The position numbers and the translations under genes are program-made. From IMG/VR virus record IMGVR_UViG_2698536348_000004: a stretch of 12,440 bases of DNA. One strand, 5' to 3'. The notes below the pieces were generated by a model, which saw only the letters and a list, made by a program, of their open reading frames with translations, was not told the DNA's origin and did not search any database. Shown here in pieces: positions 10,068-10,529 of the stretch. The DNA is from a virus (lineage: Duplodnaviria; Heunggongvirae; Uroviricota; Caudoviricetes). Each line of letters starts with the position of its first letter. Positions within the stretch are counted from its first letter, which is position 1.

Positions 10068-10529
10068 ATGAGAATACTAGGTGTTAGAGCGGCGCCCAAA
10101 GTTACATCTTTTGTTGTATATTGCACTAATGAGTCTGCACTCAAATGTGTTGATGTTATTAAAATACCTTCGACCTTAGACACACCAGAAAAATTAAAGT
10201 ATGTGAGAAATAACATCCTCGACATTCTTAATTTATATAATGTTGAATTAGCTGCCATACGCGTTACTGAATCAAACTCTGATAATCTTAGCATTGACCG
10301 CCTTTATATAGAAGCTGTTATTCAAGAAGCATTTTCAAGCAGTGATGTAAGAAAATATTACACTATTAGAAAATCTGGCATGAAATCATCATTGAACCTA
10401 ACAGAGATCGAGTATAAAGAAATATTGAAGTCACACCGCAATATAAATGGAATCGATAATTCTGGTTTTACAGCTGAAACAAATGAAGCTGTTTTGGCTG
10501 CACTATCTGCGGAGGTAAGGGGATGCTAA
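10068..10529 (+). CDS. Hypothetical protein (153 aa), translationally coupled to the kinase gene
   Basis: AGGA 10 nt upstream of ATG 10068; stop TAA (10527-10529) overlaps the kinase ATG (10523-10525) in the sequence ATGCTAA; very AT-rich. Confidence 0.65.
   Translation: MRILGVRAAPKVTSFVVYCTNESALKCVDVIKIPSTLDTPEKLKYVRNNILDILNLYNVELAAIRVTESNSDNLSIDRLYIEAVIQEAFSSSDVRKYYTIRKSGMKSSLNLTEIEYKEILKSHRNINGIDNSGFTAETNEAVLAALSAEVRGC

Follow-up and report, generated by a model that had tools for sequence, protein, structure and literature searches.

The window analysed here, a stretch of 12,440 nt from a viral genome assigned to the Caudoviricetes (IMG/VR record IMGVR_UViG_2698536348_000004), corresponds to the immunity region of the Stx phage 933W, as recognized by sequence identity and by comparison with the 933W record. 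Over positions 9600 to 11800 the identity was 100% to several Stx-converting phages and 99.9% to 933W itself, and the 933W annotation was carried over to the window with an offset of +5599. The 153-aa open reading frame under study, orf153, is L0083 of 933W and the kinase downstream of it is Stk; in the 933W record the + strand gene order is cI, L0084, L0083 (orf153), stk, L0081 and the terminator tM (Table 1). The only protein difference seen was at orf153 codon 136 (10473 to 10475), which encodes Ala in the window and Thr in 933W (AF125520), a variable position of the family.

Table 1. Genes and signals of the cI-stk operon in the window.
Feature	Position	Strand	Basis and remarks
pM maintenance promoter	about 8856-8883	+	Heads the operon; transferred 933W annotation
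cI repressor gene	8891-9598	+	Operon head with pM (8856..9598); transferred 933W annotation
L0084, DUF3024 protein	9659..10000	+	Pfam DUF3024, 2e-31; PADLOC PDC-S43, 5e-42
AGGA, SD-like, 8 nt 5' of the orf153 ATG	10056..10059	+	Read from the sequence
orf153 (933W L0083), RuvC-fold protein, 153 aa	10068..10529	+	Charge-swapped active site: R7, R65, E68, E137, E140
GGAGG Shine-Dalgarno (SD) for stk, within the 3' end of orf153	10511..10515	+	7 nt before ATG 10523; sequence
ATGCTAA, stk start and orf153 stop, 7-nt overlap	10523..10529	+	Sequence, ORFs and junctions of relatives
stk, Hanks-type non-RD kinase, 348 aa	10523..11569	+	Pfam Pkinase, 2e-46; annotated stk in 933W
L0081, basic ORF, 54 aa; probable third cassette gene	11572..11736	+	2 nt after the stk stop; PHROG 4063
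Intrinsic terminator, tM of 933W	11735..11756	+	8-bp stem with 6 GC pairs, T-run; ends the cI-L0084-L0083-stk-L0081 transcript

Between cI and the end of L0081, the tM site is the sole terminator-like site on the + strand, so that cI, L0084, L0083, stk and L0081 form one transcription unit behind the maintenance promoter. This places orf153 on one transcript with stk, downstream of cI, which is the arrangement expected of a Stk-type abortive-infection system. In base composition orf153 and stk form one low block (32 to 37% G+C), with 43 to 47% for cI and L0084. Along the window (about 10050 to 11300), G+C content fell sharply from 43 to 48% to 32 to 37% just upstream of the orf153 start and recovered near the end of stk; this drop marks the cassette as a horizontally acquired block. 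L0084 was found with the cassette at no more than 3 of 55 non-redundant loci and has the higher G+C content, for which reasons we take it to be a second, independent accessory gene of the cI operon; judged by its sequence, it looks like an adjacent, separate insertion outside the conserved cassette. L0084 also matched PDC-S43, a PADLOC candidate single-gene defence system.

The initial annotation had pointed to a 7-nt overlap between the stop of orf153 and the start of the kinase, and the overlap is real: the TAA of orf153 (10527 to 10529) and the ATG of the kinase (10523 to 10525) share ATGCTAA in different frames. Both starts are sound, since both N-termini are conserved in relatives. ATG 10523 is the sole in-frame kinase start near the junction, and the residues that follow it (MLTPYKRADVEF) match the conserved N-terminus of homologous kinases, in which F12 is invariant; the orf153 N-terminus, MRILGVR, contains G5 and R7, both invariant among relatives, and is preceded by the SD-like AGGA. 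To place the junction in context, we compared 52 non-redundant homologous gene pairs from several phyla (kinases less than 85% identical). The two genes overlapped in 33 pairs, by 8 nt (15 pairs), 7 nt (3), 4 nt (9) or 1 nt (6), and were separated in the other 19 by gaps of 0 to 4 nt (17) or 9 to 10 nt (2), with none wider. The overlap therefore reflects more than chance: close juxtaposition is conserved and the exact 7-nt form is not.

The same annotation had read roughly stoichiometric synthesis of the two proteins out of the overlap, and this does not follow. The kinase gene has a strong SD of its own, GGAGG with a 7-nt spacer, which that account had left out; SD-like motifs precede the kinase in 31 of the 52 relatives, and junctions among relatives vary in type, including gaps of 9 to 10 nt with their own SD. 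Given the strong SD and the many junction types, stoichiometric synthesis is not deducible from the sequence. Co-expression is ensured by the overlap together with the stk-L0081 junction, which is just as tight, and both leave room for translational coupling. A trait reminiscent of toxin-antitoxin loci is present too, in that a small partner gene lies directly upstream of the kinase gene and overlaps it.

Scanning genomes (one per species) with patterns derived from orf153 yielded 39 loci at 29 to 69% identity, distributed over Gamma-, Beta- and Alphaproteobacteria, Bacteroidota, Clostridia and an acidobacterium (Acidobacteriota). Each of the 39 homologues was followed directly, 3' and on the same strand, by a Stk-family kinase (phmmer E 1e-62 to 1e-133). 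Conversely, a search of viral contigs with patterns derived from the kinase recovered 80 loci, 77 of which had an orf153 homologue directly upstream; in the remaining 3 the kinase abutted or was truncated at the contig end, so that the informative count is 77/77. With both directions combined, all informative loci (116/116) showed the pairing, in different phyla and on prophages, ICEs and satellites alike. The two proteins also co-diverge (mirror-tree r = 0.86, Mantel p = 0.001) and have equal mean pairwise identities (42.4%). Where dS was unsaturated, dN/dS for orf153 was 0.05 to 0.10, which denotes strong purifying selection and a constraint at least as strong as that on the kinase (0.08 to 0.21). 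The orf153 family comprises 445 clusters at 50% identity, almost all of 145 to 175 aa, and no orf153-kinase fusion was found among the best 150 of these 445 representatives or the best 120 of 533 Stk-family kinase clusters. The earlier suggestion that orf153 is the kinase's partner is thus well founded, given the two-way co-occurrence (39/39 and 77/77), the co-divergence, the common low-G+C block and the purifying selection, and we are confident that the partnership of orf153 with Stk is functional and obligate.

Compact phage operons often contain short start-stop overlaps, and the neighbouring L0084 does look like an independent insertion, so one could suppose that the overlap is incidental and that orf153 is an unrelated accessory gene merely co-transcribed with stk. 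Against the comparative data, namely co-occurrence in both directions across phyla, co-divergence and membership of the same G+C block, this idea is highly improbable, and we consider it ruled out.

No motif had been recognized in orf153 when it was first annotated; that assessment is now superseded by a full RuvC fold and a weak Pfam RuvC match. The protein has the RNase H-like RuvC fold, with beta1-3, alphaA, beta4, alphaB, beta5 and C-terminal helices. The match to Pfam RuvC (PF02075) covered residues 3 to 65 only and lay below threshold (14.2 bits against a gathering cutoff of 22.2; E 0.042). The PHROG matched by orf153 is labelled "RuvC-like Holliday junction resolvase"; in NCBIfam no useful match was found, in PADLOC-DB v2.0.0 no family matched at E values up to 0.1, and no HTH match was detected. 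In local hhalign alignments to RuvC, residues 15 to 64 alone aligned with any confidence (E 0.002), and equivalences beyond this segment derive from a low-confidence profile alignment (hhalign probability 14%) and from motif and secondary-structure register rather than from coordinates.

Comparison with RuvC (PDB 4ld0, 6lw3, 1hjr) revealed a family-wide change of the active site. Both Pfam and hhalign placed R7 on the first catalytic Asp, and among 122 diverse relatives position 7 was Arg in 121 and Asp in none; the first catalytic Asp of RuvC has been lost in orf153. Position 65 was always Arg or Lys in these relatives, and R47, E68, R78, E82, E87 and E140 were essentially invariant. Profile alignment to four solved RuvC sequences paired R65 with the catalytic Glu and E68 with the wedge Phe, with low confidence, and on this reading of the sequences Arg or Lys appears to stand in place of the catalytic Glu throughout the family. 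An extended alignment of the same type, likewise of low confidence, matched E137 and E140 (kept in 71 and 118 of the 122 relatives, respectively) with the two C-terminal aspartates Asp138 and Asp141. Of the acidic tetrad of E. coli RuvC (Asp7, Glu66, Asp138 and Asp141), orf153 would therefore keep only the two C-terminal acidic positions, as Glu, with the C-terminal half aligned at low confidence. Because basic residues replace the first two metal-binding carboxylates of RuvC, orf153 most likely lacks Holliday-junction nuclease activity, and we think it probable that it is not a canonical nuclease. The public names for L0083 are "hypothetical protein" or those of a mislabelled resolvase.

The 3' side of the kinase showed a comparable regularity. 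In 48 of 52 non-redundant loci, an ORF of 50 to 66 aa started between -12 and +40 nt of the kinase stop, compared with 24 of 355 (6.8%) when the remaining ORFs of 150 aa or more at these loci were taken as control (binomial p about 1e-51). These small peptides are basic and have in common an N-terminal MK(K), a P-[Y/F] motif and a C-terminal aromatic patch, and 47 of 49 carried an [STKRQ]-R motif at residues 13 to 15. L0081 itself had a dN/dS of 0.2 to 0.6 and matched no PADLOC-DB v2.0.0 family at E values up to 0.1. A leave-clade-out HMM failed to establish that L0081 is homologous to the small ORFs at distant loci (best E 0.022, for a Proteus ORF, with L0081 unranked), and the case for a third gene thus rests on position, size and common short motifs. 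Around the pair, 55 non-redundant loci held no third conserved large gene, and only CI-type repressors recurred. With no other conserved neighbour, the unit consists of three genes, encoding the RuvC-fold protein, the kinase and the small peptide, and by its sequence features L0081 is probably the third gene, or subunit, of the cassette.

The cassette occurs in defence contexts, which agrees with the role published for Stk. A CI-type repressor, with HTH_3 and Peptidase_S24 or a Phage_CI_repr HTH, lay directly upstream on the same strand in about 18 of the 55 non-redundant loci. The Elizabethkingia copy (2629 to 9050 in its extract) directly follows an LlaJI-type restriction-modification operon (HTH, DNA methylase, AAA_5, RE_LlaJI) on a mobile element with ArdA and serine recombinases. 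In Pseudomonas aeruginosa (7546 to 9032 in its extract) the cassette resides on an integrase island, a P4-like hotspot, beside Phage_P4_cII and Peptidase_M78 plus Beta_protein.

Stk of 933W is a textbook prophage abortive-infection system, treated as a lone kinase and present in major Shiga-toxin phages of EHEC. Its activation is said to lead to broad protein phosphorylation. Purified recombinant Stk alone reportedly autophosphorylated and was active in vitro in work of Tyler and Friedman from 2004, for which reason orf153 would be dispensable for catalysis as such. The kinase is of the non-RD type, with H130-F131-D132 (H-F-D rather than H-R-D), a feature common to the whole family in our alignment. 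A structural model of Stk (AF2 pLDDT 89, pTM 0.90) displayed a C-terminal domain at about residues 280 to 348, a conserved four-strand beta-sheet plus helix with no PDB match beyond the kinase core; W279 and W293 are invariant in the family. This domain is a candidate for the place where orf153, L0081 or the trigger docks. The kinase domain matched PADLOC PD-T4-6 models at 1e-37, with mad6 as the best PADLOC match. In published work, Stk is co-transcribed with cI and aborts infection of a 933W lysogen by phage HK97 (PMC3564112; PMC8008677; PMC6356687; PMC3681748), and it is expressed but has little or no activity in uninfected cells (PMC3681748). The literature that we searched, which comprised papers other than the primary Stk reports, did not mention L0083 or L0081; searches on L0083, L0084 and DUF3024 returned unrelated matches only, and a search combining RuvC, kinase and defence returned nothing relevant.

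Taken together, the best overall explanation, to which we give about an even chance, is that orf153 serves a three-gene kinase defence cassette as its obligate regulatory or sensor subunit, without nuclease activity of its own. It would be the first gene of a horizontally mobile unit made up of the RuvC-fold protein, Stk and the basic peptide L0081 of about 55 aa, which in a 933W lysogen would be transcribed with cI and abort infection by a superinfecting phage. As the non-catalytic subunit, orf153 would bind Stk and control when the kinase fires, and the tight juxtaposition of the genes would keep the three products co-expressed. In the version that we prefer, orf153 would recognize a product of phage recombination and thereby license the activation of Stk; the signal might be DNA in branched or annealed form, or else the single-strand-annealing protein of the phage. 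This specific role as recombination sensor and activator is possible rather than probable. We favor it because the invariant charged site argues for specific recognition, because the fold is built to bind branched DNA, because of a lead from HK97 gp41/Erf, and because phage recombinases are reported as targets of diverse defence systems (PMC11846896).

The HK97 lead concerns the identity of gp41, reportedly the published trigger of Stk. The HK97 record numbers the genes of this region 37, 38, 39 (abc2), 40, erf, 42, 43 (kil) and 44 (cIII). In AF069529 (extract 1576 to 2181; second extract 4176 to 4781), erf is labelled "Gp40", yet the ORF before it is gene 40 and those after it are genes 42 and 42.1. 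Elimination thus leaves number 41 for erf, in an interpolated numbering. If the published "gp41" follows the numbering of the record, the trigger of Stk would be an Erf-type annealing protein, which we offer as a lead. One could extend the proposal to a three-component module operating across phyla, in which a RuvC-fold sensor of an Erf-type protein, or of its branched DNA, switches on Stk and L0081, with its conserved R...P-[Y/F], serves as pseudosubstrate or brake; in this full form the scheme is unlikely.

The same pairing could be read with the opposite sign, orf153 being an antitoxin-like inhibitor that, by binding Stk, would keep the kinase silent in an uninfected lysogen until a phage product displaces or inactivates orf153 and frees the enzyme. 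Its gene lies upstream of a potentially toxic enzyme and overlaps the start of that enzyme, so that a putative inhibitor would be translated first, and the pairing is obligate. HipBST provides a precedent for a tripartite kinase toxin-antitoxin, and recombinant Stk alone is reportedly active in vitro. In uninfected cells Stk has little or no activity despite its expression (PMC3681748). On the other side, orf153 is a well-folded, RuvC-like protein of 153 aa without an HTH or other typical antitoxin fold, its dN/dS lies below that of the kinase, which would be unusual for a labile antitoxin, and the operon is run from the repressor's promoter and not evidently autoregulated. The short, basic and fast-evolving L0081 looks more like an inhibitor peptide; it fits an antitoxin or inhibitor role as well as orf153 does, and the actual regulator may be L0081. 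The invariant polar site (R7, R47, R/K65, E68, R78, E82, E87 and E140) suggests recognition of a ligand or nucleic acid, not simple masking. We regard inhibition by orf153 as a plausible rival, though a somewhat unlikely one.

A further reading would make orf153 the effector, an active nuclease with a re-wired site that is switched on or targeted by Stk phosphorylation and degrades phage or host DNA. The whole RuvC fold is kept, such effectors are common in defence systems, and the public annotation as a RuvC-like Holliday junction resolvase points the same way. Because four invariant glutamates (E68, E82, E87 and E140) stay in place, alongside several invariant basic residues, a re-wired catalytic site is conceivable. 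The substitution of Arg for the first catalytic Asp in nearly every relative, the Arg or Lys at the Glu position and the Pfam RuvC score below its cutoff all argue against catalysis, and broad protein phosphorylation on activation, as reported, would need no extra effector. Published work, moreover, assigns exclusion to the activity of the kinase (PMC3681748; PMC8008677). Nuclease action by orf153 is, in our estimation, very unlikely.

Relative to all the literature and databases searched, three points are new: Stk belongs to a three-gene cassette that occurs across phyla, its partner has a RuvC fold with a charge-swapped site, and PADLOC-DB v2.0.0 has no model for either partner. The kinase Stk and the L0083 gene, as a database entry, were already known. 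An obligate partner and a third gene change what should be cloned and mutated when the silencing and triggering of Stk are studied. The cassette is widespread (445 orf153-family clusters at 50% identity; prophages, ICEs and satellites), and PADLOC-DB v2.0.0 sees it only through kinase models. The proposal also connects the recombination functions of phages with kinase-based immunity in a way that can be tested, and it would give a further example of a nuclease fold taken over to serve as a regulatory or sensor subunit; if the RuvC-fold protein is indeed a sensor, the resolvase fold would have found a new use, that of an innate-immune receptor linked to a eukaryote-like kinase.

Several known systems resemble the cassette in part. 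RuvC shares the fold; in the loci examined, the homologues of orf153 never occurred alone or with ruvAB, only upstream of the kinase. Other RuvC-fold or YqgF-fold pseudo-nucleases, such as mitochondrial TEFM, Tex and Spt6, act in transcription and have no sequence relationship to orf153, and we know of none that regulates a protein kinase. The closest system is that of 933W Stk itself (Tyler and Friedman 2004; Friedman et al. 2011), whose kinase is the neighbour of orf153; in the literature searched it is treated as a single-protein system, whereas here it appears as the second of three genes in a conserved cassette. Stk2 of Staphylococcus and PD-T4-6 likewise use eukaryotic-like kinases for anti-phage defence, but they are described as single genes, whereas the Stk family has two conserved neighbours and a C-terminal domain of its own. 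HipBA and HipBST also combine a potentially growth-arresting kinase with small, tightly linked partners, and HipBST is likewise a three-gene system. Their kinase is HipA and their antitoxins are of the HTH or HipS type, in contrast to the Hanks-type Pkinase and RuvC-fold partner found here; moreover, the 933W cassette operon is not evidently autoregulated. Lambda rexAB, finally, is expressed together with cI in the lysogen, from the maintenance promoter, as an accessory module for abortive infection (PMC3564112). The Stk cassette has the same position and logic, with a CI-type repressor upstream at about a third of its loci, but the proteins are unrelated: Rex acts via a membrane ion channel, and the cassette would act via its kinase.
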